Assembly (NCBI GenBank): GCA_965208935.1
Contig: CBDBPR010000003.1
Span: 91,877 to 155,876, forward strand
Length of the DNA: 64,000 nt
From: Longimicrobiales bacterium
GTDB taxonomy: Bacteria > Gemmatimonadota > Gemmatimonadetes > Longimicrobiales > Gaopeijiaceae
Direction: 5' to 3'
Part shown: positions 1-48,187 of the stretch, piece after piece
How the letters are laid out: each line of letters begins with the position of its first letter
Position numbering within the stretch: the first letter of the stretch is position 1
Translations under genes and position numbers: made by a program
The notes under the pieces: generated by a model
The model's database searches: none
What the model was told of the DNA's origin: nothing
The model's input: the letters and a program-made list of their open reading frames with translations, nothing else

Positions 1-118
1 CCAGGGACTCCATTACACTCCCGGTCGCCATGTTCGGTGTTTTTGGTGCGGCGAGTTGGCGCGATTCTTGCTATATTGCGTGTCCTTCACCGGCTTTGGA
101 CAGAAAGTGGACAACGCA

Positions 119-3100
119 ATGCAACCCGGTCGGGCGACAAGGCCGCCGCTTCGGCGAGGCGGTTCGCGGTTGGCCATCCTGCTTGGCATCGTGTTGCCGG
201 CGCTTTCCTGCCATGACGACGCGCCGGAGCCGTTGAGCCCGTTCACGGAGACGGCTCCCTCGGCGCAAGCGAGTCTCACGGAGCCTGACCGAGCCACGCT
301 TGTGGAGTTCTATCGTGCGACCGGCGGCGATGACTGGAAGAACAACGGCGGCTGGCTCTCGGACGACCCGATCGGCACATGGCATGGCGTGAGGGTGGAG
401 GGCGGCCGGGTGGTGCGGCTTGACCTCAGGGACAACAACCTGAGGGGGCGCCTTCCGAAGATCGTTGCCGAACTGGCCGGCCTTCGCGTTCTGAGTCTGA
501 GCAGCGGGTCGTCCGGGAGCCCGAACAGGAACAGGCTGTGGGGCCGGATTCCGCCCGAGTGGGGCGATCTCTCCGAATTGCGGGAGTTGCGGCTGGGACT
601 GAACCTTCTTTCCGGCACCATTCCCACCGAACTGAAGCGGCTGTCGCGCCTGGAAGTCCTTGGGTTGGGGTTCGCGGGCGTTGAGGGTCCGCTGCCCGCG
701 TGGCTGGGCGAACTGACGGAGCTTTACGAACTGGGTTTGTCGGGGAACTACTTCGACAGCCCGATACCGCCCGAACTCGGTAACCTGCGCAATCTGAGAA
801 CGCTGGATCTGTCCGGAGCCGAGGTCTGGGGGCCGATACCGCCGGAGCTCGGCAACCTGTCGAAGCTCGGATACCTGTCCCTCAGCGACAACCATTTCTC
901 TGGCTCGATCCCGTCAGAGTTGGGGAAACTCGGCCGTCTCGGCAGGCTCTTCCTGTCGAGATCGAATCTGAGCGGCGCGATTCCTGCCGAGCTGGGGAAC
1001 CTGACGGACCTCACGACTCTTTGGCTCGACGACAACGACCTGACCGGGCCGATCCCTCCGGCGCTGGCCGATCTGGCGGAACTGGAGGATCTGTTTCTGT
1101 CGGGCAACCGGTTGAGCGGAAGCCTGCCACCCGAGATCGGCGGACTGTCGAAGCTGGAGCGGCTCTGGCTGTCGGGCAACGGGCTCGAAGGCGGCGTTCC
1201 ACCCGAGTGGGGAGGGCTTTCGAGCCTCCGCGAGCTGTTGCTGGGACGGAACCCTGATCTGGGCGGAGCGCTGCCGCGCGAGTTGACGCGTCTGGACCTG
1301 AACTGGCTGGATACGGACGCTTCGGGACTGTGTGCCCCCAAGGACCCCGAGTTCGCGGACTGGTTGGGCCGTATCGCGATTCAGGCGGCGGAGCCGTGCG
1401 GACAGGGCGACCTCGATGCCTATCTCATCCAGGCGACACAGTCCCGGAGCGGTCTGGTTCCGCTTGTTGCCGGCCGGAAGGCGCTGTTGCGGGCGTTCGT
1501 GACGGCGGCGGACGCCGTCGAGCGCTTCCCGGACGTGCGGGCGCACTTCTATCTGAACGGCGCGCCGGCACACGTCCTCGACATTCCCGGGAAGCCGGGT
1601 CCGGTTCCGGGCGAGGTGGACGAGGGCGATGCCGCGATATCCGTCAACGCGATGGTTCCGGGGTGGGTGATTCAGCCGGGCCTGGAGATGGTGATCGAGG
1701 TCGATCCGAACGGGGAGGTGGCCGACAGCGTCGACATGGCGCGCCGGATTCCGGGCGAGGGCCGGATCGAGGTGGACGTTACCGAAATGCCGGAGATGGG
1801 GTTGACGGTGATTCCGTGGTTGTGGCCGAAGGATCCCGAGGAGGAGATCCTGGACCTCATGCGGGGCATCTCGGCTGAGTCGGAGGTGTTCCACGCCACG
1901 CGGACGCTCCTGCCCGTCGGCGAGGTCGGCCTGGCGGTTCACGAACCGGTGTACACGACGACGAACTCCGGTTTTGAGATTCCCTACGAGGTGCAGGCGC
2001 TCCGGGCCATCGAGGGCGGGTCGGGGTACTACATGGCTCTCACGGCACAGGTGGACCGGGACCGTGGCGTCGCCGGCGTGGCCCTGCGCAGCGGGTGGTC
2101 CGCCTGGTCGGTGTTCAACGGCGGCGTCATCGCGCACGAACTCGGCCACAACCTGAGTCTGGGCCACGCGCCGTGCGGCACGTCGGGCGACCCGCGCTAC
2201 CCGCAGCCGGACGGGTCGGTCGGCACGTTCGGATTCGACCTCGATACCGGAATGGAGTCGGTCGTCCATCCCAACACGAAGGACTTCATGAGCTACTGCG
2301 GCCCGACGTGGGTCGGGGCGTGGCACTTCCGGGAGATGACCCGTCACCGCGTGAGGCGGGAAGTCTCGCCGACCGGGGGCGAGCGCGCGGCTCAATCGAA
2401 GTCGCTGCTCCTGTGGGGAGGGCGGGACGACAGGGACGGGCTCTTCCTGAAACCGGCGTTCTGGGTGGACGCGCCTTTGACGCCGCCGCCCCCCGGCGAC
2501 CGGTACGAGTTGAAGGGATGGTCGGCGACGGGCGAGCAACTGTTCTCCGTTCGCTTCGGCATGGTCGAGTCCGAGGACGGGGACGGGCGCGCGGGGTTCG
2601 CCTTCGCGCTCCCCGCGCGTGCGGAGTGGGGCGATCTGGCGGAAGTCGCCCTGAGCGGGCCGGGCGCGGCGGCGTTCTTGAACCGCGACACCGACCGGCC
2701 GTCGGTCATTCTGCGGGACGCCGCGACCGGTCGGGTGCGGGCGATGTTCATCGACGCCCCCGTCGCCGCCATGGCCGCGAGCGCCGATGGCGGGGCTTAC
2801 TTCTCGGGCGGTGCCCGCCTCGTGGCCGCGCGCAGTCATGGACTGCCGGACCCCGCCGACTGGGAACCCACGGGCGCGGGCGCAAGTTCGGGTGCGAGCG
2901 ACTCCGGCACCGTGGCTTCGATCACGGTAACGCCCGCTGCGGCGACAGTGGCCCTGGGGGATACGGTACGCCTCGTGGCGACCGCGCTGGACGCCGACAG
3001 CTCGGAGGTGGATGGGGTCGAATTCGAGTGGACTTCCGGCGACACGCTGGTGTTTTTGGTGGACCAAGCGGGGCTGGTCACGGCGCTCCGTGCGGGTTCA

Positions 3101-5770
3101 ACCGTCGTCACTGCGACTGCGGGCGGGGTGTCCGGACGGGCCGAGGTTCGGGCGGAGCAGCGCGCCGTGTCCGTGGTGTTGACCCCCGGGGCCGCAACGG
3201 TCGCGGCGGGCGACACGGTGCGCTTCACGGCGACGGCGCTTGATGTCAACGGCTCGCCCATGGCGAACGTCGACTTCGAGTGGGCCGCGAGTGACACCTC
3301 GGTGGCCTGGGCCGGTCGTTCCGGGCTTGCCTTTGGCTGGAGGGCCGGAAGCGCCACCGTATCGGTTCGCACCGACCGCGGCGTATCCGCTTCCGCCGAC
3401 ATGACGGTCGAGGGGGAGTTGGAGGTGGAACGGTTCGCGTTGACGCGCCTGTACGCTCGCCTGCGGGGGTGGGACTGGCGCGAAAGCGGCAACTGGCTCA
3501 CGGACGCCCCGCTCGCGGATTGGCACGGAGTCACCGTGAACAGGGGAACCGGCAAGGTCACCGGCCTCGATCTTGGAGCGAACAACCTGAGGGGGCAGTT
3601 GGGTCCCGAACTGGGAGCGCTTGGCGAACTGGAAAGACTCGGACTCGGATACAACACCATCCGGGGCAGGATACCGCCGGAGATCTGGCGGCTCGACCGG
3701 CTTTGGGTGTTGGATCTTGGTGGGCTGGGCCTCACCGGCCCGCTATCGCCCGAGATCGGGAACCTCTCCCGGCTCATCCAGCTGAACTTGGGCGGCAATG
3801 CGCTGTCAGGCGTCATTCCGCCGACCATCGGCGAACTGACGAACCTGATCAGCCTGAGTCTCTCGGACAACGTGTTCGAGGGACCGATACCGGCGGAAAT
3901 CCTGAACATCACGGATCTTGCGTCGCTTGATCTGGCCGGCAACCGGTTGACCGGAGAAATCCCGGCGGGGCTGGGTGAGCTCGCGAACCTCCAGTCACTC
4001 GATCTTCGGCGCAACCGGTTGACCGGAGAACTGCCGCCAAGCCTCGGCGGGCTCGAACTGCTTCACGAGCTTCGCGTCGCCGACAACGACCTGACGGGCG
4101 AACTGCCACCCGAATTCGGCGGGCTTCGGGCGATCGACCGGATCGACCTGGCGGGCAATGCCATGTTGCAGGGCGCCCTGCCCTCGGCCTGGGTCGAAAG
4201 GAACCAGAGGATGGACGTGAAGGCCGCGGGCACGGAGTTGTGCGCTCCCCGGCACGCGGGTGTTCTGGACTGGCTGCGCATGAACGACCTGACGTTCATT
4301 CCGGTCTGTGCCGGGGGAGAAGCGGCGTTCGCGTATCTCGTGCAGGCCGTCCAGTCGCGGCAGTACCCGACGCCGATCGTCGCGGGCGAGGACGCGCTGC
4401 TGAGGGTCTTCATGTCCACCGACGGCCACGCGGACATGCCGCCGGTCAGGGCCACCTTCCACGCGGGCGGCCGGATCATGCACACGGCCGACATCCCGGC
4501 GGGCCAGGCGCGCATTCCGCCGGAGATCGACGAGGGGGACCTGTCGAAGTCGGCCAACGCGGTCGTTCCGGGAGAAGTCGTGCAACCCGGCCTCGAAATG
4601 GTGATCGAGATCGATCCGGACGGCACCTTGGACACAGGGCTGGGCATCCCCGGCCGGATTCCGGCCGAGGGCCGGGCACCGGTCGAAGTGCGCGCGATGC
4701 CGGTGCTCGATCTCACGGTGATCCCCTTTCTGCAGGCGGACAACCCGGACTCCACATTGCTTGAGCGCGCGCACGACTTGGAAGCCGACACCAGCGTATT
4801 TCGTGCGGCGGACCGGCTCCTGCCGGTCGGCGAACTCGCAGTGACGGTGCATGAGCCCGTGTTGACCAACTCCGGCGACTTCGCCTGGGATCTGTTGCAT
4901 GAGACGGAGTTGATTCGGGTCGTCGAGGGCGGCGACGGCTACTACATGGGCCTCTTCGGCCACATCCGCTCGGGCGTCATCGGACAGGCTTCCTACATCG
5001 GGGGCAGGAGCCTCGTGTCCCTCGCCCACGCCGGCACGGTCGCTCACGAACTCGGACACGCGATGAGCCTTCTGCATACGCCGTGCGGCGTCCGGGGGGA
5101 CGACCCGGACTATCCTTGGCGGGACGGCTCGACGGGCTCGTGGGGATACGACTTCGCCACCGGGACCCTGGTGCCGCCGGAAGCCACAGACCTCATGGGG
5201 TACTGCGGCCGGCAGTGGATCAGCGGGTATCATTTCTCGAATGCGCTCGACCACCGCCTTCGCACCGAGGCGGCGGCACGACCGCCCGCGGTGGCGGAAC
5301 AGGCGCTCATCGTCTGGGGAGGCGTCGATGCCGCCGGGCAGCCCTTCCTGAAGCCCGCGTTCGCCGTCGAGGCGCCGCCCAGGCTGCCCGCACCGGGCGG
5401 CGACCACCGGTTGACCGTCCTCGCGGCCGGGGGCGAGACGCTGTTCTCGATCAGCTTCGACATGCCCGAGACCGCGCATCTGGACGGGGCGTCTTCGTTC
5501 GTCTTCGCCATCCCAGCGCCCGGGGGTTGGGCCGGAAACATCGAACGCATCACGCTCGACGGACCCGGCGGGACCGCGGCCTTGGACCCGGAGACCAGCG
5601 CGCCCGCCATCATCGTCCGGGATCCGACCGATGGGCGCGTGCTCGGCCTCCTCACCGACCCGCCGCCCAACCTGCTGCCCTCCGCGGATGGCCGGGGGAA
5701 CTCGCCCCTCTCGGGCTTCGATATCGTGGTAAGCAGCGGGCTGCCCGAGGTCCCGCCTGAGCGACGTTGA
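119..5770 (+). CDS. Giant lipoprotein with duplicated architecture: plant-type LRR array + metzincin-like Zn-metalloprotease module, two Big_2 Ig-like domains, then a second LRR + metalloprotease module
   Basis: ORF 56..5770. The ATG at 119 gives MQPGRATRPPLRRGGSRLAILLGIVLPALSC, a signal peptide with a lipobox. 24-aa LRRs (LxxLxLxxNxLxGxIPxELGxL) follow LRRNT-like caps (LVEFYRATGGDDWKNNGGW and LTRLYARLRGWDWRESGNW). Zinc motifs are HELGHNLSLGH (nt 2135-2167) and HELGHAMSLLH (nt 5045-5077). Two ITVTPAAATVALGDTVRL-type Big_2 repeats lie at nt ~2910-3410. Confidence 0.85.
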   Translation: MQPGRATRPPLRRGGSRLAILLGIVLPALSCHDDAPEPLSPFTETAPSAQASLTEPDRATLVEFYRATGGDDWKNNGGWLSDDPIGTWHGVRVEGGRVVRLDLRDNNLRGRLPKIVAELAGLRVLSLSSGSSGSPNRNRLWGRIPPEWGDLSELRELRLGLNLLSGTIPTELKRLSRLEVLGLGFAGVEGPLPAWLGELTELYELGLSGNYFDSPIPPELGNLRNLRTLDLSGAEVWGPIPPELGNLSKLGYLSLSDNHFSGSIPSELGKLGRLGRLFLSRSNLSGAIPAELGNLTDLTTLWLDDNDLTGPIPPALADLAELEDLFLSGNRLSGSLPPEIGGLSKLERLWLSGNGLEGGVPPEWGGLSSLRELLLGRNPDLGGALPRELTRLDLNWLDTDASGLCAPKDPEFADWLGRIAIQAAEPCGQGDLDAYLIQATQSRSGLVPLVAGRKALLRAFVTAADAVERFPDVRAHFYLNGAPAHVLDIPGKPGPVPGEVDEGDAAISVNAMVPGWVIQPGLEMVIEVDPNGEVADSVDMARRIPGEGRIEVDVTEMPEMGLTVIPWLWPKDPEEEILDLMRGISAESEVFHATRTLLPVGEVGLAVHEPVYTTTNSGFEIPYEVQALRAIEGGSGYYMALTAQVDRDRGVAGVALRSGWSAWSVFNGGVIAHELGHNLSLGHAPCGTSGDPRYPQPDGSVGTFGFDLDTGMESVVHPNTKDFMSYCGPTWVGAWHFREMTRHRVRREVSPTGGERAAQSKSLLLWGGRDDRDGLFLKPAFWVDAPLTPPPPGDRYELKGWSATGEQLFSVRFGMVESEDGDGRAGFAFALPARAEWGDLAEVALSGPGAAAFLNRDTDRPSVILRDAATGRVRAMFIDAPVAAMAASADGGAYFSGGARLVAARSHGLPDPADWEPTGAGASSGASDSGTVASITVTPAAATVALGDTVRLVATALDADSSEVDGVEFEWTSGDTLVFLVDQAGLVTALRAGSTVVTATAGGVSGRAEVRAEQRAVSVVLTPGAATVAAGDTVRFTATALDVNGSPMANVDFEWAASDTSVAWAGRSGLAFGWRAGSATVSVRTDRGVSASADMTVEGELEVERFALTRLYARLRGWDWRESGNWLTDAPLADWHGVTVNRGTGKVTGLDLGANNLRGQLGPELGALGELERLGLGYNTIRGRIPPEIWRLDRLWVLDLGGLGLTGPLSPEIGNLSRLIQLNLGGNALSGVIPPTIGELTNLISLSLSDNVFEGPIPAEILNITDLASLDLAGNRLTGEIPAGLGELANLQSLDLRRNRLTGELPPSLGGLELLHELRVADNDLTGELPPEFGGLRAIDRIDLAGNAMLQGALPSAWVERNQRMDVKAAGTELCAPRHAGVLDWLRMNDLTFIPVCAGGEAAFAYLVQAVQSRQYPTPIVAGEDALLRVFMSTDGHADMPPVRATFHAGGRIMHTADIPAGQARIPPEIDEGDLSKSANAVVPGEVVQPGLEMVIEIDPDGTLDTGLGIPGRIPAEGRAPVEVRAMPVLDLTVIPFLQADNPDSTLLERAHDLEADTSVFRAADRLLPVGELAVTVHEPVLTNSGDFAWDLLHETELIRVVEGGDGYYMGLFGHIRSGVIGQASYIGGRSLVSLAHAGTVAHELGHAMSLLHTPCGVRGDDPDYPWRDGSTGSWGYDFATGTLVPPEATDLMGYCGRQWISGYHFSNALDHRLRTEAAARPPAVAEQALIVWGGVDAAGQPFLKPAFAVEAPPRLPAPGGDHRLTVLAAGGETLFSISFDMPETAHLDGASSFVFAIPAPGGWAGNIERITLDGPGGTAALDPETSAPAIIVRDPTDGRVLGLLTDPPPNLLPSADGRGNSPLSGFDIVVSSGLPEVPPERR

Positions 5771-6205: not shown

Positions 6206-6853
6206 ATGGGCAGCTTGCATGATGCCGTCATGCAGTACGTGGAACAGGAAATGAAGAAGGACCCCGGCGTGAAGAACGCCGCCCTGTTCGCCGGTGCCCG
6301 CGAGATCGACGAGTTGATCGGGGAACTCAGGCCGCAACAGTTCCACGCCAGGTATCGGCTGCCGGTGACGCGGCGGCTGGCGGAACAGCGACGGCCCGCA
6401 CGGCAAGCGAAGACGGCCCCGGCACCTGACCCCGCGCCAGCGTCATTGGGAGATGGTGCCGCCGTCATGGAGTACGTGGAGCGGACGCTCGAAGCGAACC
6501 CCGGAATCGCGAACGCGGACCTGTTAGCGGGTGCCCGCGAGATCGACCCCTCGGTCGGGCAACTCTCGGCCCGGCAGTTCCACGCGAGATACCCCCTCCA
6601 AGTCAAGGCGCGGCTCGCAAGGGCCGCCGCGCCCGAGCCCAAGCCGCCGCCGGAACCGGAGGTCCCAACGGCTGAGGAGCCCACCGCGCCGGACCTATCG
6701 TCGGCGGGAGACGGCGACCCGCTCGCGGTTCGCCGTCTGCTGCTCGATCTGGCCAAGGAACTCGCGAGCGCGGAGAGCAAGGCGGAAGTGATCGAGGTCA
6801 TGGCCCGGCTGGACGACTACGTGGCCGAGATCATGGAGGCGGCAGGGGACTGA
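6206..6853 (+). CDS. Hypothetical protein with an internal tandem duplication of a ~58-aa unit
   Basis: ATG at 6206 is preceded by GAAAGGA. Repeat 1 (nt ~6218-6391, AVMQYVEQEMKKDPGVKNAALFAGAREIDELIGELRPQQFHARYRLPV) and repeat 2 (nt ~6455-6628, AVMEYVERTLEANPGIANADLLAGAREIDPSVGQLSARQFHARYPLQV) are separated by a Pro/Ala linker. I recognise no family. Confidence 0.55.
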   Translation: MGSLHDAVMQYVEQEMKKDPGVKNAALFAGAREIDELIGELRPQQFHARYRLPVTRRLAEQRRPARQAKTAPAPDPAPASLGDGAAVMEYVERTLEANPGIANADLLAGAREIDPSVGQLSARQFHARYPLQVKARLARAAAPEPKPPPEPEVPTAEEPTAPDLSSAGDGDPLAVRRLLLDLAKELASAESKAEVIEVMARLDDYVAEIMEAAGD

Positions 6854-6890
6854 TTCACCCGCCAGCATCGGCGGCCGGAGCGGCGCGCGA

Positions 6891-7190
6891 CTTACGACCG
6901 TACTGGCGCGTGAAATCGACATGGAGGGTCGATTCACACTTTGGCCCTCCGGCGATTCACACCGGCCCTGCCGACTATCCGCTGGCGCGGCAACGTCTTG
7001 CGGCCCGGCCGTCCGGTGGCCCGTGGCACACGAGCGGTTCGGGCCGTGGTGGGAGCGACCCGCCTCGCCGAGGGCTCGGTACGGGCTCGGGCCGAGGTGG
7101 AAACTCACACCTCGCCCCCCGCCCTCCACGGGTCGCTCCCACACCATCGGTCCCTGCGGGAAGGCCCGTCAAGCGCCGCTTCGAGGCGCT
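6891..7190 (+). repeat. R-element copy R1 (structured ~300-nt repeat, + orientation)
   Basis: Aligns to 42571-42872 along its length. The closing stem GGGAGCGACC (7051-7060) / GGTCGCTCCC (7131-7140) encloses hairpins GCCGAGGGCTCGGT and GAGGTGGAAACTCACACCTC. It also has the conserved block TCCCTGCGGGAAGGCC (7151-7166) and a terminal hairpin AGCGCCGCTTCGAGGCGCT. Confidence 0.75.
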
Positions 7191-7338
7191 GGACCACACA
7201 CTCGCCGTACAACCCCTCCGGTCCAACGCGACCGGGCGTTCCATTCGCTTCTGTACTACGTTGAACCCGACGTTTCGGTTTCGCCGTTTCGGCCTCGACG
7301 GGCCGATTCACTCTCAACCGGGGGATCCGGCCATCGCG

Positions 7339-7773
7339 ATGAGAAAGCTGTTGTTGCTGGGTCTGGCGCTCTTGCCCGCGCAGGTCGAGGCGCAGGAGAG
7401 GCCCGGCCGGATGATGCTCGAAGCGGGACTCGTCGGCGGCAGCGGCGACGCCTGCCCGGGAAGGTACGTCGGCATCAAGGGACGGCTCGCCGGGCCGGTG
7501 TCCCTGTACGGCATGGTCGAGACCTACCGCTGTGCCGATTTCGCGGGCTCCGCCAACCGCATCGGAACCTCCGTCCGGCTCGGACGCGACCGCTGGTTCG
7601 TTCGCCCGGCGATGCGGGCGGGCATCGAGTACGACGGCGGAGACGTTTCGCCGACCGCCGGGGCGAGCCTGACGTTCGGACGGCGCTACGGCGCGCGCTT
7701 CATCCTCCACCTCGGTGAGGCCTCCGGGGGCACCCTGACGCTCTTCCAGATGGGCGGTTACATCTCGTTCTGA
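7339..7773 (+). CDS. Small secreted beta-barrel-like outer-membrane protein (144 aa)
   Basis: The signal peptide is MRKLLLLGLALLPAQVEAQ. The sequence has alternating Gly/aromatic beta-strand-like segments and a C-terminal ...GGYISF aromatic end. The upstream part of track ORF 6910..7773 is the R1 repeat and is not coding. Confidence 0.6.
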   Translation: MRKLLLLGLALLPAQVEAQERPGRMMLEAGLVGGSGDACPGRYVGIKGRLAGPVSLYGMVETYRCADFAGSANRIGTSVRLGRDRWFVRPAMRAGIEYDGGDVSPTAGASLTFGRRYGARFILHLGEASGGTLTLFQMGGYISF

Positions 7774-7798
7774 GCCCGAGCCGATGCGACCGACGGGG

Positions 7799-8110
7799 GC
7801 TCCGACGTTTCAGCCGGAACCGACCGTCGGAGCGACGCGCCGTTGGCCTTCCCGCACGGGATTGCTGGGCCGTAGCGACCCCCGCGGAGGGTGGGATGGG
7901 CAGTGCACATCCCAACCCTCCTCGATGCCACGACAGGCATCGAAATAGGGGGGTCCTACCGGCATCGGCCCTGAAGGCCGACACGGCATAGGCGCCCCGG
8001 TGGACGGATCGCAAGCCCAACAGCGCCAGCAGCTTGGGGAATCGGTGCTGTGCACGGCCAGGACGCTTTTTCGTGCACAACGACCCCCGCGTCACATGTG
8101 CACCTCTGGA
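7799..8110 (-). repeat. R-element copy R2 (inverted relative to R1)
   Basis: The reverse complement carries the same blocks: GCTGGCGC, closing stem GTAGCGACCCCC (7872-7883) / GGGGGGTCCTAC (7948-7959), hairpins TCGATGCC..GGCATCGA and GGGATG..CATCCC, ATCCCGTGCGGGAAGGCC, and terminal hairpin GCTCCGACG..CGTCGGAGC (7799-7833). Confidence 0.7.
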
Positions 8111-8325
8111 TCGGCATCGGGCGCACCGAAAACTGTCTCCGCGTTACCGCTTCCCGACCGAAGATCGGGGAGCTCCGGCGCGACCGGTAGACGGCGGATT
8201 CCCGGCCCGATTTCGCGGAGGATGCCACGCGCTTCGAGCACTCCGTCAGTCTGGCGGAGAACGCTACTCTCCGCGATACTTCGTTGCGCAGATCGTGCAG
8301 TCCATCAATCGAGAGGAATCGAACG

Positions 8326-9486
8326 ATGGTACGCACGAAACGAAGTCGGCGCTCGTACGGCGCTGGCGAATGGGGCCGGAACCGGGTCCGGGTGTTCCCG
8401 GACGCCAAGACTGGCCTGTATCAGTTGGAGTGGCGCGAGAACGGGCGCAGGCTCACCCGGTCGCTCAAGCACCGCGACTGGCGGCGCGCGAAGCGGCAGG
8501 CGGACCAGTTCGCCGCAGGGTTCGTCGGCCCGGAGATCTGGGGCGGGGCGGAAGCCAAGCCCGAGCCGCTCACGCTGGGAAGGCTCTTTGACATCTACGG
8601 TGAGGAGGTGACGCCCACCAAGGGCGCGCACACGCGGGGGCACGACCGGGCCGCCATGCGGATGTTCCTCCGGTTCTTCGGACGGAGCCGCGACCCGGCG
8701 ACCTTGTCTCAACGGGACTGGGATCGCTTCATCCGGGAACGGCGAGCGGGCAGGATCGGACCGAGCGGCAGGCCCGTGTCGGACCGCACGGTCGAATACG
8801 ACCTGAAGTTCCTGATCGCGGTGCTGAATTGGGCGGAGAGGTCGAGGGACGAGCAGGGCCGGTTGTTGCTAGACCGGAACCCGCTCAAGGGTCTCAGGAA
8901 GCCCGCTGAGAAGAACCCGACGCGGGTGGTGCTCGCCGAGGAGGAGTATCGGGCGCTGCTGGAGGTGTCGCGCCGGGTGGACTGGCGGTTCCGAATCGCG
9001 CTGGTGCTCGCGCACGAAACCGGGCACCGCATCGGTGCCATACGCCAGCTTCGGTGGCCTGACATCGACTTCGAGGGTCGGACGATCCGCTGGCGGGCCG
9101 AGCACGACAAGTCGGGCTACGAGCACATCACGCCCGTCACCGCCGAGGCGCTCGACGCGCTGAAGGAGGCGCGGAGCCCGATTCCCTTGGCCGGGGATGC
9201 CCCGGTGCTGCCCGCACCCAGGAATTCCTCGGTCTGCATGGGAGCCGCGTTGGCGCAGGGGTGGTGGGACAGGGCCGAACGGCTTGCGGGTCTGGAGCCC
9301 AAGCCCGGCAGGGGCTGGCACTCGCTGCGGCGGAAGTTCGCCAGCGACCTGATGGACCAGCCGCTGAAGGTGCTCTGCGAGCTGGGCGGCTGGAAGACGG
9401 CGAAGACGGTTCTTCAGTGTTATCAGCGCGCGAATGAGGGACAGCTTCGGACGGCTCTGGAAGCCCGTAGAAGACTCCGCGATTAG
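8326..9486 (+). CDS. Tyrosine recombinase / phage-type integrase (copy 1)
   Basis: ATG at 8326 follows GAGAGGA. Box I is LAHETGHRIGAIRQLRW. Box II is GWHSLRRKFASDL ... GGWKTAKTVLQCY (H-x-x-R and the catalytic Tyr). By eye it is roughly 75-80% identical to the CDS at 45445-46605. Confidence 0.9.
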   Translation: MVRTKRSRRSYGAGEWGRNRVRVFPDAKTGLYQLEWRENGRRLTRSLKHRDWRRAKRQADQFAAGFVGPEIWGGAEAKPEPLTLGRLFDIYGEEVTPTKGAHTRGHDRAAMRMFLRFFGRSRDPATLSQRDWDRFIRERRAGRIGPSGRPVSDRTVEYDLKFLIAVLNWAERSRDEQGRLLLDRNPLKGLRKPAEKNPTRVVLAEEEYRALLEVSRRVDWRFRIALVLAHETGHRIGAIRQLRWPDIDFEGRTIRWRAEHDKSGYEHITPVTAEALDALKEARSPIPLAGDAPVLPAPRNSSVCMGAALAQGWWDRAERLAGLEPKPGRGWHSLRRKFASDLMDQPLKVLCELGGWKTAKTVLQCYQRANEGQLRTALEARRRLRD

Positions 9487-9495
9487 ATCCGCAAT

Positions 9496-9546
9496 CGGCG
9501 GGAGTCAAACGGCTGGAATCCGACCGGCCAATCCCGTAAGTTCAAC
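9496..9546 (+). other. Conserved segment immediately downstream of integrase 1 (paralogous to 46618-46666)
   Basis: GCGGGAGTCAAAC-N19-CCAATCCCGTAAGTTCAA compares with GCGGGAGTCAAAC-N18-CCAATCCCGTAAGCTCAA after integrase 2. CGGGA/TCCCG can pair. Homology ends right after this segment. Confidence 0.5.
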
Positions 9547-9726
9547 CTCCATGAGCAGATGCGAATCCACGACCGACTGCCGGGCCGGCAAGGCGCGACG
9601 AAGGGCCAGTAGCAGCGCTACGGGCCCGAGGAGCAACGCAGAGCGAAGCGGTCCGGCCCGGATGCATCGCCGCTCGAATGCCGGGGGGATTTTGTCCACG
9701 GGCTGCCAGGGGGACGCGCAGCAGGG

Positions 9727-10245
9727 TCAGTCCAGGCCCGCCACGGCGCTCCGCCGCTCCATCATCACGACGTCCCGCCAGCGCCCGTCGTGGAACCGGC
9801 CCAGGCGGTCGTGAGTCCCCAGGATGCGGAAGCCGACCCGCTCGAAGATGTGGATCGAGGCCCGGTTTTCGGGGAAGATCCCCGCCTTCAGGGTCCAGAT
9901 GCCCTGGGCCTCGGCATCGTGGACGAGCCGTTCAAGCAGCTGGCCGCCCACACCCTGTCCGCGCGCCGACGCGGCGATGTAGATCATGACTTCCTGCACA
10001 CCTGCGTAGACGGGGCGCCCGGACACGGGGCTGAGGGCAGCGAACCCGACCGTCTCTCCATCCACGGCCGCGATGATGCGGCAGGCGGAATGTCGTGCGG
10101 AGTCCCAACTCTCCCAGTCCGGCACTTCGGTCTCGAATGTCGCGTTGCCCGACTCGATGCCCTGCCGGTAGATCTCCGCCACGGCGGGCCAATCGCCCGG
10201 GACCATGGGGCGGAATGTGACCTTCGGGGAGCGCGGCGTCATCAC
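9727..10245 (-). CDS. GNAT N-acetyltransferase, phosphinothricin acetyltransferase-like
   Basis: FRPMVPGDWPAVAEIYRQGIESGNATFE ... ARGQGVGGQLLERLV ... ENRASIHIFERVGFR has the typical PAT/GNAT A-motif layout. Confidence 0.8.
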   Translation of the reverse strand: MMTPRSPKVTFRPMVPGDWPAVAEIYRQGIESGNATFETEVPDWESWDSARHSACRIIAAVDGETVGFAALSPVSGRPVYAGVQEVMIYIAASARGQGVGGQLLERLVHDAEAQGIWTLKAGIFPENRASIHIFERVGFRILGTHDRLGRFHDGRWRDVVMMERRSAVAGLD

Positions 10246-44232: not shown

Positions 44233-45203
44233 TCAGAACATCTTGCGCCGGAGCCGCTCCGACCGCCAAGTGCCCACCCGGTGCAACAGCCCCCGGCCGG
44301 ACTCCCGAAGAGCCCGATTCTGGAGTTCCGCCAGCCGCACGAGCCCGCCCCGGATGTCGCCGCACACCTCTCGGACCAGCCTCTCGTCCCTGCTGCGGAG
44401 AACATCCTTGATCCACTCGATCTCGCGGTCGATCTCCGGGTCGTAGTCGGACGAGCGCAGGCCCCTCGCCCAGTTGCCGAGCACGGTGTCCGCGCGGCTC
44501 GTCTCCTTCGAGCCCCGCCCGACGGCCACGATCTCGATCTTGCGTTCGCGGTCCCGGAGCATCGCCCACAACTCCCGGTGCGCCGCGCCCCAGGCGCGTA
44601 GCCCCCTCGCGGTCTCGTGACCGGGATCGACATGGACGAAGACGGCGCGCTTCGCGTCCAGCGCGACCGGAAGCCCGAGATGAAAGTGCCGCCGGATGTT
44701 CCCGGCCGCGCCCCGGTAGGTCCGCTGGGGCAGAACCCGGCGCTCGATCCCGAGCGCCTCGAACGCGGCGACCTTCTCGGCCTCGGTCGGCAGCCACGGC
44801 AGGCGGGGATGGTCGAGCACGTAGTCGAGTGCCAGCAGCCGTCGCATCAGCACGTCGCGGGAGGTGATCCGGCGACGCCGATGGAACTCCCCGGCTCCGA
44901 GCGCCCGGAACACTCTGCGGGCTTGGATGCGGCACACGCGGCCGATCTTGCGGACGCCGGCCGGGGCCTCCTCGACGGCCAAGCCCTGCGCGACGAGGGA
45001 GTGGACGGCGCGCCGCACCTTCTCCGGGTGGCAACCCAGGAAACTCGTCCACTGCAAGCGGGTGAAGACGCCGCCGTGAAGGCAGGCCAATGCGATCCAC
45101 TCGGCCCGGCGTCCGGTCCAGCCGAACGCCTCCAGAGCTTTCTCGCGTCCCTTGAGATGGGCGATCAGCGCGGCCTCCCGTGGTTGAAGGACCGGGCGCG
45201 CAT
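44233..45203 (-). pseudogene. Frameshifted (or mis-assembled) gene for a winged-helix protein, possibly replication-relaxation-like
   Basis: A strong start (GGAAGGAG + 5 nt + ATG at 45203) opens a 12-codon ORF ending at the TGA at 45165. The long frame (open from 45216 to 44233) has no ATG/GTG before the TTG at 45090, yet reads sensibly upstream (REAALIAHLKGREKALEAFGWTGRRAEWIALACLHGG). The family call is weak (wHTH-like VFTRLQWTSFLG...VRRAVHSLVAQGLAVEE). Confidence 0.45.
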
Positions 45204-45444
45204 GTGGGCTCCTTCCTCACGCTGCGTGTCACTCCCGTTGGAATCGGGAGAGAGCCCTCGGGCCGCGTCAAGCCGCGCCCGCGAGCGGATGTCCCAAGCG
45301 GTCCAGCCGGATCCCGGATGGAGATCGGCCTTCGGCCACAGTCCCTCCGTCGCGTTCCGGGGGTGTCGGCACTGGTCAAGACGCCCCTTCCGGGCGAAGT
45401 TTCGTTCGCGCAGATCGTGCAGTCCGTCAGTCGAGAGGAATCGA

Positions 45445-46605
45445 ATGATGGCACGCACGAGAAGAAGCCGTCGGAGCTACGGCGCCGGCGAGTGGGGCCG
45501 GAACCGCGTGAGGGTATTTCCCGACCCGAAAACCGGCCTGTTCCAGATAGAGTGGCGCGAGAACGGCCGAAGGCTGAGTCGGTCGCTCAAACACCGCGAC
45601 TGGAGGCGCGCGAAGAGGCAGGCGGACGAGTTTGCCGCCGGGTTCATCGACGCGCCGAACGGCAAGGCGGAGGCCAAGCCCGAGCCGCTCACGCTGGACA
45701 AGCTGTTTGAAATCTACGGTGAAGAGGTGACGCCCACGAAGGCGGAGGCGTCCCAGCGGTCCGACCGGGCCGCGACGAGGATGTTCCTCCGGTTCTTCGG
45801 ACGGGACCGGAGTCCCGAGACGCTATCCCAGCGCGATTGGGACCGGTTCATCCGGGCACGTCGCTCGGGCAGGATCGGGCCAAGCGGAAGGCCGGTGTCC
45901 GACCGCACCATCGAGCACGACCTGAAGTTCCTGATCGCCGTGCTCAACTGGGCGTCCAAGTCCCGGGACGAGCGGGGCAAGCTCCTGCTCGCGTCGAATC
46001 CGCTGAGGGGTCTCAGAACGCCCACGGAGAAGAACCCCACGCGGGTGGTGTTGTCCGAGGAGGAGTACCAGGCGCTTCTCGGGGTGTCCCAAGAGGTGGA
46101 CTGGCGCTTCCGCGTCGCGCTCGTGCTCGCCCACGAGACGGGCCACCGAATCGGGGCCATCCGTCACCTTCGATGGTCTGACATCGACCTCGAAGACGGG
46201 GTGGTGCGGTGGCGCGCGGAGCACGAGAAGACCGGATACGAGCACCGGACGCCGGTGACGGCCGAAGCGTTGGCCGCCCTGCACGAGGCGCGGAAGAGGA
46301 GTTCCGGGCATGAGCACGCTCCGGTGCTGCCCGCGCCGACGGATGGCTCCAAGTGCGCCGGCCGGTCGTTGGTGCGAACTTGGTGGTACAGAGCCCAGAC
46401 GCTGGCGGGGCTCGAACCGAAGCGCGGGAGAGGCTGGCACTCGCTGAGGCGGAAGTTCGCTTCCGACCTCATGGATCAGCCGCTCAAGGTGCTCTGCGAG
46501 TTGGGCGGTTGGAAGACCGCCAAGACGGTGCTTGAGTGCTACCAGCGAGCCGACGAGGGACAGCTTCGGAAGGCACTGGACGCCCGCCGGAGACCTCGAA
46601 GCTGA
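45445..46605 (+). CDS. Tyrosine recombinase / phage-type integrase (copy 2)
   Basis: ATGATG at 45445 follows GAGAGGA. LAHETGHRIGAIRHLRW, GWHSLRRKFASDL and GGWKTAKTVLECY. The upstream 276 aa of track ORF 44617..46605 are antisense to the 44233-45203 gene and were not used. Confidence 0.9.
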   Translation: MMARTRRSRRSYGAGEWGRNRVRVFPDPKTGLFQIEWRENGRRLSRSLKHRDWRRAKRQADEFAAGFIDAPNGKAEAKPEPLTLDKLFEIYGEEVTPTKAEASQRSDRAATRMFLRFFGRDRSPETLSQRDWDRFIRARRSGRIGPSGRPVSDRTIEHDLKFLIAVLNWASKSRDERGKLLLASNPLRGLRTPTEKNPTRVVLSEEEYQALLGVSQEVDWRFRVALVLAHETGHRIGAIRHLRWSDIDLEDGVVRWRAEHEKTGYEHRTPVTAEALAALHEARKRSSGHEHAPVLPAPTDGSKCAGRSLVRTWWYRAQTLAGLEPKRGRGWHSLRRKFASDLMDQPLKVLCELGGWKTAKTVLECYQRADEGQLRKALDARRRPRS

Positions 46606-46617
46606 GGCTCATGAATC

Positions 46618-46666
46618 AGCGGGAGTCAAACAGCGAGAATCGAGCTTACCAATCCCGTAAGCTCAA
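46618..46666 (+). other. Conserved segment downstream of integrase 2 (paralog of 9496-9546)
   Basis: See the entry for 9496-9546. This copy overlaps the last codons of the convergent DUF222-HNH gene. Confidence 0.5.
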
Positions 46667-47796
46667 GGGAAAACAGGAGATCCGATCTTGAACAACACCG
46701 CCGTAACGTTAGGGTTAGCGGTCCCATTGCCCCGGTGTCCCATCCGGACATGCCGGTGTCCCTGGATTTGCCGCGGAAACGCGGGGGCATCCCCTGCGGT
46801 CGCCCCGCCTGCCTGCTCTTCCGCCTCCCACGCCGCCTCGACCGCCTCCCTGACGGCCGCCTCGATCTCCCAGAGTATCGCCGAGTCCACCAGCCGCGCG
46901 GCCCCGTTGTACATCTCCCCGGGCCCAAGCGGGGGCGGGGGCGGCAGGGGCAGCGTCGGCTCCGGCAGCGGTGGCGCGCTCGCGATCATCCCGCCGCTGC
47001 GCGCGAAGAACACCGCCTGGCCGAGCCGGTCGAGCGCCATCCGGACCCGGCCCTCGTGCACCAGCCGGTGATGCCGCCGGCAGAGCAGCACCGTGTTGGC
47101 CAGACTCGTCTCCCCGCCATCGGCCCAGTGCCGGACATGATGCGCCTCGGTGAACCGGCCCCCGCAGCCCGGGTACCGGCAGCCCCGGTCCCGTTCCTCC
47201 AGCGCCCGGCGAATGTGCGGCGGGATCGTCCGCGTCTTCCGCCCCACGCTGACGACCTTGCCCCCCCGGTGCAGCATCGAGACCAGCGACGCGTCGCACG
47301 CCATGCGCCGCGACGTCTCGGCGCTCACCCGCACCCCGTCCAGTTCCGACCGGCCCCCCTCGACGGCCCGCATCAGCACGGCCCCGGCCTCGGGCTCGAG
47401 CCGCTCCCGCACCATCCGCTCCACCGCCGCGGCCGACCCCTTGTCGGCGTATTCGAGCAGCTTGCCCTCGGTCTCGGGCGTGGCCACCCGGGTGATGGCC
47501 CGCGCCTTCGCGTAGGATAGCTGCCCGGCCTTCATCGCGGCCGAGGTCTTCGGCAGGTCCTCGAGCGCATGCGCGACACGCACGTTCTCACGGCAGGTCG
47601 CGACCGTGCGGCCGGTCCTCCAGGCGAGCCACTCGGCGCAGGAGTCGAAGGTGTCGGCCCACCCCTCGCGGCGGTCGAACTCGGCGACGAGGGTGAGCAT
47701 CTCGTGGGTGGCGATGTTGATCCGGGCGGCGAGTTCGGCGATGCGCTCTCCGAGTTGGACGGTGTTCATGTGATCCTCCAGGTCGAGTTCCGGCAA
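46663..47796 (-). CDS. DUF222 + HNH endonuclease domain protein (REP13E12-like selfish-gene family)
   Basis: N-terminal DUF222-like LAARINIATHEMLTLVAEFDRREGW...GQLSYAKARAI. HNH motif CRYPGCGGRFTEAHHVRHWADGGETSLANTVLLCRRHHRLVHEG. Start is ATG 47796 or 47769. Confidence 0.85.
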   Translation of the reverse strand: MPELDLEDHMNTVQLGERIAELAARINIATHEMLTLVAEFDRREGWADTFDSCAEWLAWRTGRTVATCRENVRVAHALEDLPKTSAAMKAGQLSYAKARAITRVATPETEGKLLEYADKGSAAAVERMVRERLEPEAGAVLMRAVEGGRSELDGVRVSAETSRRMACDASLVSMLHRGGKVVSVGRKTRTIPPHIRRALEERDRGCRYPGCGGRFTEAHHVRHWADGGETSLANTVLLCRRHHRLVHEGRVRMALDRLGQAVFFARSGGMIASAPPLPEPTLPLPPPPPLGPGEMYNGAARLVDSAILWEIEAAVREAVEAAWEAEEQAGGATAGDAPAFPRQIQGHRHVRMGHRGNGTANPNVTAVLFKIGSPVFP

Positions 47797-48187
47797 CGGC
47801 TTATGTGAATCGTGCCTGAAATTTAACTATCGATTTTCGGCCTTCTCTGCGGGCCCAGGACGCGAAAAGTCCGGTCACGACGACGCCGAAGGGTCACCGG
47901 GCGTCGTTCGCCCGCCAGCGGGGCTCCCGCGGCTCCTGGCGGCCATCCCTGCACCGGGTCCCGGACCTCGCCGAAGTCGCCATTTCAGAACCCGTCCATA
48001 GCAGGATCGGCCTGCATATGGACGATTTGGGACAGGGGGGCGGCAAAGGGTGCCCGGGAGAGACAATCCCGGAGTCCGCCGGGGAGAGACATCCGGCGAC
48101 CCGCCGAGGCATGGCGCGCCAGCCCGCCGCCCCCGTCAGCCCCACGTTTCCGCGGCAAATCGCGGGACATCCGCATGCTCGTATGGG
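46739..48187. mobile_element. DUF222-HNH gene bracketed by ~50-bp imperfect inverted repeats
   Basis: 46739-46788 (inside the 3' end of the HNH ORF) is the reverse complement of 48140-48187: GCCCC(C/A)(G)CGTTTCCGCGGCAAATC(CA/GC)GGGACA(C/T)C(G/C)GCATG..CG.ATGGG. Confidence 0.35.

Follow-up and report, generated by a model that had tools for sequence, protein, structure and literature searches.

A multicopy integrase module of the Longimicrobiales with a convergent pair of structured repeats that appear to bound a cargo slot

Tyrosine-recombinase invertons, such as fimS with FimB/FimE and the invertible promoters of Bacteroides, combine surface-protein genes with inverted repeats of 9–30 bp, which are the whole site, and with a small dedicated invertase (~200 aa, no arm-binding domain); their segments carry a promoter and are seen in both orientations. 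Integrons (IntI, attI, and attC) place a tyrosine recombinase with its own signature beside a site where unrelated genes gather, each cassette having one direct attC of 57–141 nt, and lambda-type integrative elements or genomic islands encode a phage-type integrase with an N-terminal extension and have arm-like repeats beside a palindromic core. In accessory-site systems, including TnpS/TnpT of Tn4651 with rst, Xer at cer/psi, and TnpI of Tn4430 with IRS, a tyrosine recombinase stands beside a divergent accessory DNA-binding protein of ~310–330 aa and the sites span a few hundred bp with inverted and direct copies of a binding motif, features that recur in the locus described here. Folded DNA is, to our knowledge, read by tyrosine recombinases in few systems only, for example at integron attC and the CTX phage attachment site. 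The locus compared with these systems lies in a 64,000-nt stretch of a Longimicrobiales bacterium (assembly GCA_965208935.1, contig CBDBPR010000003.1, positions 91,877–155,876; hereafter the window), where two modules, A and B, each join a tyrosine integrase to two copies of a ~285-nt repeat, termed R, that face each other across a gene. The window has a guanine plus cytosine content of ~68%, and the closest matches of its genes are metagenome-assembled genomes labelled Gemmatimonadota or Longimicrobiales.

The best reading of module A is that it is one copy of a multicopy, undescribed integrase module family spread through the Longimicrobiales, with several diverged copies per genome. Its stable block comprises the proximal R, a leader, a phage-type tyrosine integrase, and a tail of ~105 nt ending in a 13-bp palindrome, and a second R of the other clade faces the proximal copy, 3' end to 3' end. 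The explanation favored here, tentatively and with a little less than even confidence, is that this integrase module moves or duplicates its block and has a cargo slot edged by its R pair. The integrase would move or duplicate the block via site-specific recombination at the tail palindrome, R would serve as a cis-acting, palindrome-rich fold-back DNA element, and the inner R ends would be the edges where cargo is exchanged.

Comparison between genomes revealed the shared block directly. Window positions 6894–9590 were 93% identical to L002:8566–11265, on a different chromosome with unrelated flanks, and the common block ran from the 5' start of the distal copy, R1, to the palindrome TGCCGGGCCGGCA, with both R copies, the integrase, and the tail included. 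Homologues of the integrase numbered >2700, most of them 75–96% identical, and in a set of one genome per species it matched >540 places, single Longimicrobiales chromosomes having as many as six or seven copies. A hidden Markov model of R detected it in ~50 of the 80 loci retrieved, usually in the order R(+), variable gap, R(−), 150–200 nt, and integrase. Linkage was counted for 80 related integrase copies with enough upstream sequence, 34 of which had an R(−) within 1.6 kb upstream of the integrase and 24 a full R pair. Searching metagenome contigs from the R 3' motif gave 26 loci with a true R, which adjoined integrases wherever the contig was long enough, and across all loci examined R was found only adjoining an integrase or gX, a gene described below. 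Scans of the window and 30 loci for tRNA and tmRNA genes found none, so the module is not a tRNA-targeting island, and IMG/VR viral contigs scanned with the integrase contained no relatives, giving no phage link.

In module A, R1 (6885–7166, + strand; nhmmer match 6893–7173) and the proximal copy R2 (7845–8126, − strand; nhmmer match 8118–7840) face each other around a gene and upstream of the integrase, an arrangement proposed by a first-pass annotation made from the sequence alone and borne out here with slightly shifted coordinates. The same annotation had described R as folded elements of ~300 nt; this also held, the hairpin-rich cores being ~285 nt long with folding z scores of −3.8 (R1) and −4.0 (R2), both better than 200 of 200 dinucleotide shuffles. 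The ~325 nt that it gave corresponds to the core plus a variable trailing hairpin of ~45 nt, which is GCGCCGCTTCGAGGCGC after R1 (7167–7212, +), not kept between clades in the alignment of R copies, and CTCCGACG...CGTCGGAG after R2 (7800–7844, −, from sequence reading and alignment). Conservation of R in the alignment ended directly after GCGGGAAGGC. R1 and the reverse complement of R2 shared ~68% identity with gaps, with an alignment score of 50 compared to 5.7 ± 4.7 for shuffled sequence, i.e., nine standard deviations over it. The sole long identical stretch between them was TGCGGGAAGGCC, the near-invariant 3' terminal motif of R, which makes a perfect 12-bp inverted repeat with arms at 7155–7166 and 7845–7856.

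The gene enclosed by the pair (7339–7773, +) encodes a 144-aa protein with a signal-like N-terminus (MRKLLLLGLALLPAQVEA) and a C-terminal Phe (...GGYISF). It had been annotated as a 435-bp gene for a signal-bearing, beta-barrel-like protein: the open reading frame and signal-like N-terminus stood, and the protein matched no Pfam family, so the label “beta-barrel-like” describes sequence features only. A longer open reading frame (6910–7773) running through R1 into this gene was rejected as coding because R1 homologues exist without any downstream open reading frame. Between R2 and the integrase lies the leader (8127–8325, +, ~200 nt), which is kept among loci with a P-type R (the clade of R2, defined below), its last ~55 nt alone being common to all relatives. 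The integrase (8326–9486, +) has 386 aa and matches Pfam PF00589 (Phage_integrase, 2.7e-17) and, over residues 19–380, phrog_1 “integrase” (1e-47). Its translation has the full catalytic set of R235 (ETGHR), K262 (DKSG), H332/R335 (HSLRR), W356 (GGW), and Y366 (CYQ). The close spacing annotated between R2 and the integrase was retained, with the distance from the R2 5' end corrected from 216 to 200 nt.

The conserved tail of module A (9487–9590, +) contains the arm-like direct repeat AATCGGCGGGAGT at 9493–9505 with a degenerate second copy just after, and ends in the 13-bp palindrome TGCCGGGCCGGCA (9578–9590), ~100 nt past the integrase stop codon. The same ~105 nt past the stop codon were conserved family-wide as two arm-like direct repeats (AATCGGCGGGA) followed by a palindrome of variable sequence, and homology between elements stopped either ~100–115 nt or 150–165 nt past the stop codon. 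Where two integrases converge, in L027 and L032, the two tails share a single palindrome, which lies exactly halfway from one stop codon to the other. These sequence comparisons suggest that the tail palindrome is probably the core site and right end of the module. Searching the window for the arm-like repeat of the tail gave copies in the two tails only, and no second copy of the tail palindrome was found in the window. On the left, the commonest break of homology blocks spanning the integrase was the proximal R inner (3') edge (80 cases), and the 92% match between L072 and module B extended from the proximal R inner edge rightwards only.

Several separate observations concern the region behind the integrase. 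The tail-to-tail integrase pair of L027 and L032 (10001–12515) is mirror-symmetric about TGCCAGCCCGGCA (L027:11250–11262), and similar convergent integrase pairs are present in L057 and L052. In module A, a second palindrome, GGGCCAGTAGCAGCGCTACGGGCCC, lies at 9603–9627 (+). Window 1–9648 matches contig L001 of another assembly at 99.87% identity, and the two diverge completely thereafter (L001:11323), 21 nt past the second palindrome, with a DDE_Tnp_1 insertion sequence (IS) and other genes beyond in L001; this break is a strain-level rearrangement directly behind the integrase tail.

Convergent R pairs differed in what they enclosed, with 13 of 31 abutting so that two small hairpins alone lay between them and the others enclosing 0.15–5 kb. 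The contents of the slot were mutually unrelated and included the 144-aa protein (known in the window, L001, L002, and L052 only, among loci compared), the OMP_b-brl_2 protein of module B, an IS21 IstB gene, a DUF900 hydrolase, a lipoprotein, a beta-propeller protein, a PADLOC HEC-07-like gene as a defense candidate, and a homologue of a 215-aa protein also encoded in the window. Alignment of a filled pair with a related empty pair showed that the cargo replaces a ~100-nt spacer exactly between the two GCGGGAAGGC ends. In all 16 pairwise matches of cargo segments from different loci, the two segments ran the same way relative to the integrase, and the orientation of ompA, the 144-aa cargo gene, was identical in the window, L002, and L052, three independent genomes. 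The 144-aa secreted-protein gene is best read as swappable cargo whose slot has a convergent R copy on either side, not as the payload of an inversion switch. The first-pass annotation had offered, as its alternative, that the integrase moves a cassette whose ends are the R pair. This survives in part, as variable cargo is sharply bounded by the R inner (3') ends, but the shared unit also holds both R copies, the integrase, and the tail. It had also suggested checking whether homologous integrases always adjoin R-flanked surface-protein genes: 24 of 80 copies had a full pair, 27 of 80 had no R within 10 kb, and 13 of the 31 pairs were empty.

The HEC-07-like cargo is a 642-aa open reading frame in a metagenome contig (L195:2940–4868, −; PADLOC HEC-07 models, 1.9e-14) that lies between two same-direction P-type R copies beside an integrase. 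The 215-aa protein of the window is encoded just upstream of R1 (6206–6853), with an internal tandem duplication (6261–6381 vs. 6498–6618) and no family match. Its homologue in the same contig (L195:1695–2342) is cargo between two R copies and the 215-aa protein may therefore share the same mobile-gene pool.

A first clustering of R gave two main clades plus a few small groups, and 113 full copies scored on two clade models comprised 41 D-type and 72 P-type. Clade predicted position, with D distal and P beside the integrase. R1 scored 255 bits on the D-clade model compared to 43 on the P model, and R2 scored 234 bits on the P-clade model compared to 46 on the D model, which was built from distal-type copies alone. 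Both clades have a 5' hairpin, middle hairpins, a long stem GGGAGCGACC / GGTCGCTCCC enclosing two more hairpins, and, at the 3' end, a small terminal hairpin (TCCC..GGGA) finishing in GCGGGAAGGC. This architecture was kept at ~55–70% identity, and truncated R copies exist. A covariance model built for the R 3' domain found 116 copies, all in the same sense, including R1 (7047–7165, 83.5 bits) and R2 (7846–7964, 97.2 bits). In this domain, 80% of cells pair compared to 74% in shuffles (0 of 500 reach it) and 39–51% with partners slid, the covariation score was 0.168 compared to 0.088 in shuffles (0 of 500) and ~0.04–0.05 with partners slid, and both sides change in 22 of 33 pairs. G-U pairs showed no excess over A-C, at 151 vs. 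181, with 60/65 and 89/97 in another count and, in the best-aligned helices, 6 vs. 32 (P4) and 1 vs. 18 (P5), so that pairing at the DNA level fits better than RNA. A clade-specific 8-mer (ATTCACAC, TTGTGCAC, or CCGGACAC) occurs at four fixed positions of R, twice as an inverted pair, at 2.9 copies per R compared to 0.27 for shuffled motifs; the repeated 8-mer looks like a putative binding-site set for a sequence-specific protein. Rfam at gathering score gave no matches over the whole window and, at E values up to 10 over 6700–8400, chance-level matches only, and a promoter and terminator scan of 6700–9800 found no promoter-like site.

In many loci a gene of ~310 aa, termed gX, ends 4–18 nt upstream of R on the same strand, and L033 and L039 represent the complete form gX> R> <R <gX INT>. 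The window retains one gX, in module B (45168–44233, −), and module A lacks both, although a resemblance to the spacer behind gX elsewhere survives in a few bases just before R1. The gX family has 1186 homologues, and no family was assigned to it from Pfam, NCBIfam, PHROGs, PADLOC, or a PDB sequence profile. A structural model (mean predicted local distance difference test score 73) has an N-terminal MarR-like winged helix, which was all that Foldseek recognized against PDB and viral structures, the remaining domain being unmatched. R persists in most loci with a decayed gX, so that conservation is stronger for R than for gX. The most likely mode of action of R is as DNA, a motif-studded fold-back platform for gX and perhaps the integrase; this sequence-based view draws on the missing G-U signature, the repeated clade motif, R copies without an upstream gene, and recombination breakpoints clustered at R edges.

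A number of results weigh against the proposed mobile block with an R-bounded slot. The evidence for movement consists of shared sequence blocks in different contexts only, and no flanking direct repeats, empty site, or circular junction were found. A look-up of empty sites or alternative junctions by the downstream acetyltransferase returned just a 1.4-kb contig. The left end varies, lying at the 5' start of the distal R in module A compared with L002 and 8 kb further left in L033 compared with L039, two loci that have 9.3 kb in common, including a leucine-rich repeat (LRR) protein gene. The 27 of 80 related integrases with no R within 10 kb have other upstream modules instead, which indicates that the integrase does not need R, and copies within one genome are 75–90% identical, as expected of old paralogues rather than recent transposition. 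The pairing statistics of R lean toward structure because the alignment was fitted to the structure under test, and in single-sequence folding the gX strand was ahead by 2 kcal/mol (p = 0.013; G-U 445 vs. 351); an RNA trailer would also account for this weak edge and for the short distance between gX and R. Finally, two steps of the mechanism are pure inference: the cognate gX would bind the clade-specific 8-mers of R, and the invariant R parts (the GAGCGACC/GGTCGCTC stem and the 3' GCGGGAAGGC) would be recognized by a conserved factor, probably the integrase.

The module layout had initially been likened to phase-variable inversion, in which the integrase would invert the DNA bounded by the two 12-bp repeat arms and so switch the surface-protein gene. 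The perfect 12-bp inverted repeat around the gene, which is the best-conserved part of R, the adjacent tyrosine recombinase, and the secreted or outer-membrane proteins that make up the cargo of both window modules are as this would predict. However, the D and P clades hold fixed positions across the 113 copies, the shared cargo (ompA included) never changes orientation in the comparisons above, the empty pairs contain no gene, and elsewhere the slot has whole genes of many kinds, a hydrolase and an IS among them. No promoter-like site was found in 6700–9800. In length (386 aa) and type the recombinase is a phage integrase rather than a small Fim-type invertase, and flipping the gene would not obviously switch its expression because R faces the cargo from each side. 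Inversion is therefore regarded as very unlikely. An exact search of metagenome contigs for the junction expected after inversion, ...GGTCCCTGCGGGAAGGCC joined to AACGGCGCGTCGC, gave 0 matches, which is uninformative as the collection may not hold the source population. The least probable of the alternatives is that R copies are passive repeats, similar to miniature inverted-repeat transposable elements or decaying duplicates with no function of their own. R is indeed multicopy and palindrome-rich and some copies are truncated, but position-specific clades, an architecture kept despite sequence divergence, compensatory changes, the restriction of R to the vicinity of integrase or gX genes in the loci examined, and its outlasting of gX all weigh against this.

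Two other explanations assign R an active role. R could be a structured RNA, as a 3' trailer of gX or an independent transcript, that works together with gX or the integrase or regulates either of them. This is unlikely, although R always lies on the gX strand and close behind its stop codon, at least five nested helices show covariation with a small hairpin after R, the sense strand has a slight folding advantage, and R would be new given that no Rfam family covers it. It is countered by G-U pairs that do not exceed A-C and fall well below them in the best-aligned helices, by the lack of a promoter-like site in 6700–9800, and by the retention of R where the upstream gene is lost. A candidate guide-like match linking the tail end to the R pair of the same element was also rejected, the longest match being 8.0 nt compared to 7.8 nt for unrelated elements (p = 0.31). 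Integron-like capture, in which R would be a ~285-nt fold-back site recognized through its structure in the manner of attC, the integrase would insert or excise R-bearing circles at the 3' motif, and genes would pile up among R copies beside the integrase, is distinctly unlikely. It agrees with cargo edges that are sharp at the invariant GCGGGAAGGC, with arrays of the form D(+)..cargo..P(−)..cargo..P(−) INT containing same-direction P copies in L195, L176, and L130, with compensatory changes in R without G-U bias, as for folded DNA, and with diverse cargo including a defense candidate. Opposed to it are the inverted rather than direct arrangement of R around most cargo, the score of 18.3 bits on the TIGR02249 integron-integrase model (cut-off 265), and the third of integrases that lack R. 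In addition, the extra P copies bear gX remnants, so the arrays may be decayed tandem modules, and the IstB IS shows that ordinary insertion fills the slot too.

Module B (42566–46716) is a paralogue of module A, with the same order of parts, different cargo, and an extra gene between R and the integrase. It comprises a D-clade distal R (42566–42846, +), a cargo gene for a 227-aa protein matching Pfam OMP_b-brl_2 at 2.2e-8 (43104–43787, +), a P-clade proximal R (43934–44220, −), a gX of ~310 aa that shares the strand of the proximal R and ends 12 nt before it (44233–45168, −), an integrase with 78% amino acid identity to that of module A (45448–46605, +), and a tail (46606–46716, +) with AATCAGCGGGAGT at 46614–46626. 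The homology with L072 stops at 46716, and the cargo sequences of the two modules are unrelated. No ATG, GTG, or TTG was present from the upstream stop codon to about residue 27 of the gX family alignment (44233–45210, −), and this gX may have an unusual start codon or be inactive.

Other features surround the modules. Directly behind the tail of integrase B comes a DUF222 plus HNH endonuclease gene (46663–47796, −) with a 48-nt inverted repeat around it (46739–46786 / 48140–48187), and in L001 an 82%-identical DUF222 plus HNH gene lies behind the tail of integrase A, after an IS; this gene may be a second small mobile element targeting the region behind these integrases. Upstream of module B, a 139-nt inverted repeat with 71% complementarity (37948–38086 / 40736–40874) brackets 2.6 kb, and a PadR-family regulator gene (41900–42427, −) just upstream of the distal R shows no sign of a link to the module. 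Upstream of module A (56–5770) is a gene for a 1904-aa LRR, Big_2, and M66-like protein with an internal duplication (1743–1815 vs. 4653–4725). The LRR gene of L033 (L033:3695–6811) encodes a 1038-aa LRR_8/Big_2 protein upstream of the complete gX-R-R-gX-INT block, within the 9.3 kb common to L033 and L039.

No description of the module was found in Rfam, Pfam, NCBIfam, PHROGs, or PADLOC, and literature on RNA-guided tyrosine recombinases, sponge Gemmatimonadota mobile elements, and TnpS/TnpT contained nothing describing it. If the favored explanation is true, genomes throughout one bacterial order each contain several copies of a recombination module not described before, with three conserved parts, i.e., an integrase with thousands of close relatives, the 1186-member gX family, and a 285-nt structured element absent from Rfam. 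The module would then mark a site of turnover for secreted, outer-membrane, and defense-type protein genes, which would offer a handle on surface and accessory gene variation in little-studied, often host-associated bacteria. Should R prove to be a DNA site read by structure or a recombinase-linked RNA, it would be a new example on a very short list. A bolder proposal, improbable on present evidence but with a real chance of being right, is that R is a new class of ~285-nt structure-conserved fold-back DNA site with a T-shaped 3' domain and that, with the non-integron integrase and gX, it forms a gene-capture or exchange platform in Gemmatimonadota, an independently arisen analogue of integrons. 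Such a platform would load secreted, outer-membrane, and defense genes between two convergent sites, and many of its hosts come from host-associated metagenomes.

Set against the known systems, the module shares inverted repeats, a tyrosine recombinase, and surface-protein genes with invertons, but here the 12 bp are no more than the tip of a conserved 285-nt element, many pairs are empty, cargo was seen in one orientation across loci, and the recombinase is a long integrase of phage type. Xer/pdif systems are also remote, since the XerC and XerD models score the integrase at 22–23 bits (cut-offs ~330) and sequence reading found at the R ends no 11-6-11 site resembling the 28-bp dif-like sites that bound such modules in inverted orientation. 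The tnpB/omega RNA and IS110/bridge RNA systems similarly have a long structured element tight against the end of a protein gene in a mobile module, but gX belongs to none of the nuclease or recombinase families involved and R has neither a G-U signature nor a match between R and the element end. R resembles integron sites in keeping structure rather than sequence, with compensatory changes free of G-U bias, and the module likewise has a tyrosine recombinase beside a place where unrelated genes gather; R differs in its length, its convergent pairing, and its link to a winged-helix gene, with same-direction arrays in few loci, and the integrase lacks the IntI signature. In contrast to the accessory-site systems, gX has no detectable homology to TnpT or other known accessory proteins, and the module has two inverted sites with cargo between them and no Tn3-type transposase. 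The module differs from lambda-type elements in lacking a tRNA target (a frequent but not essential trait of theirs), detectable attL/attR direct repeats, and excisionase or phage genes, and in having a block as small as 2.7 kb with several old paralogous copies per genome. It shares with them, besides the phage-type integrase and its arm-like repeats, the same block in different contexts, a defined end next to int, and variable cargo between conserved modules. The integrase itself is ordinary; what is new is the gX family, the cargo slot, and the pairing of two large structured elements in convergent orientation.

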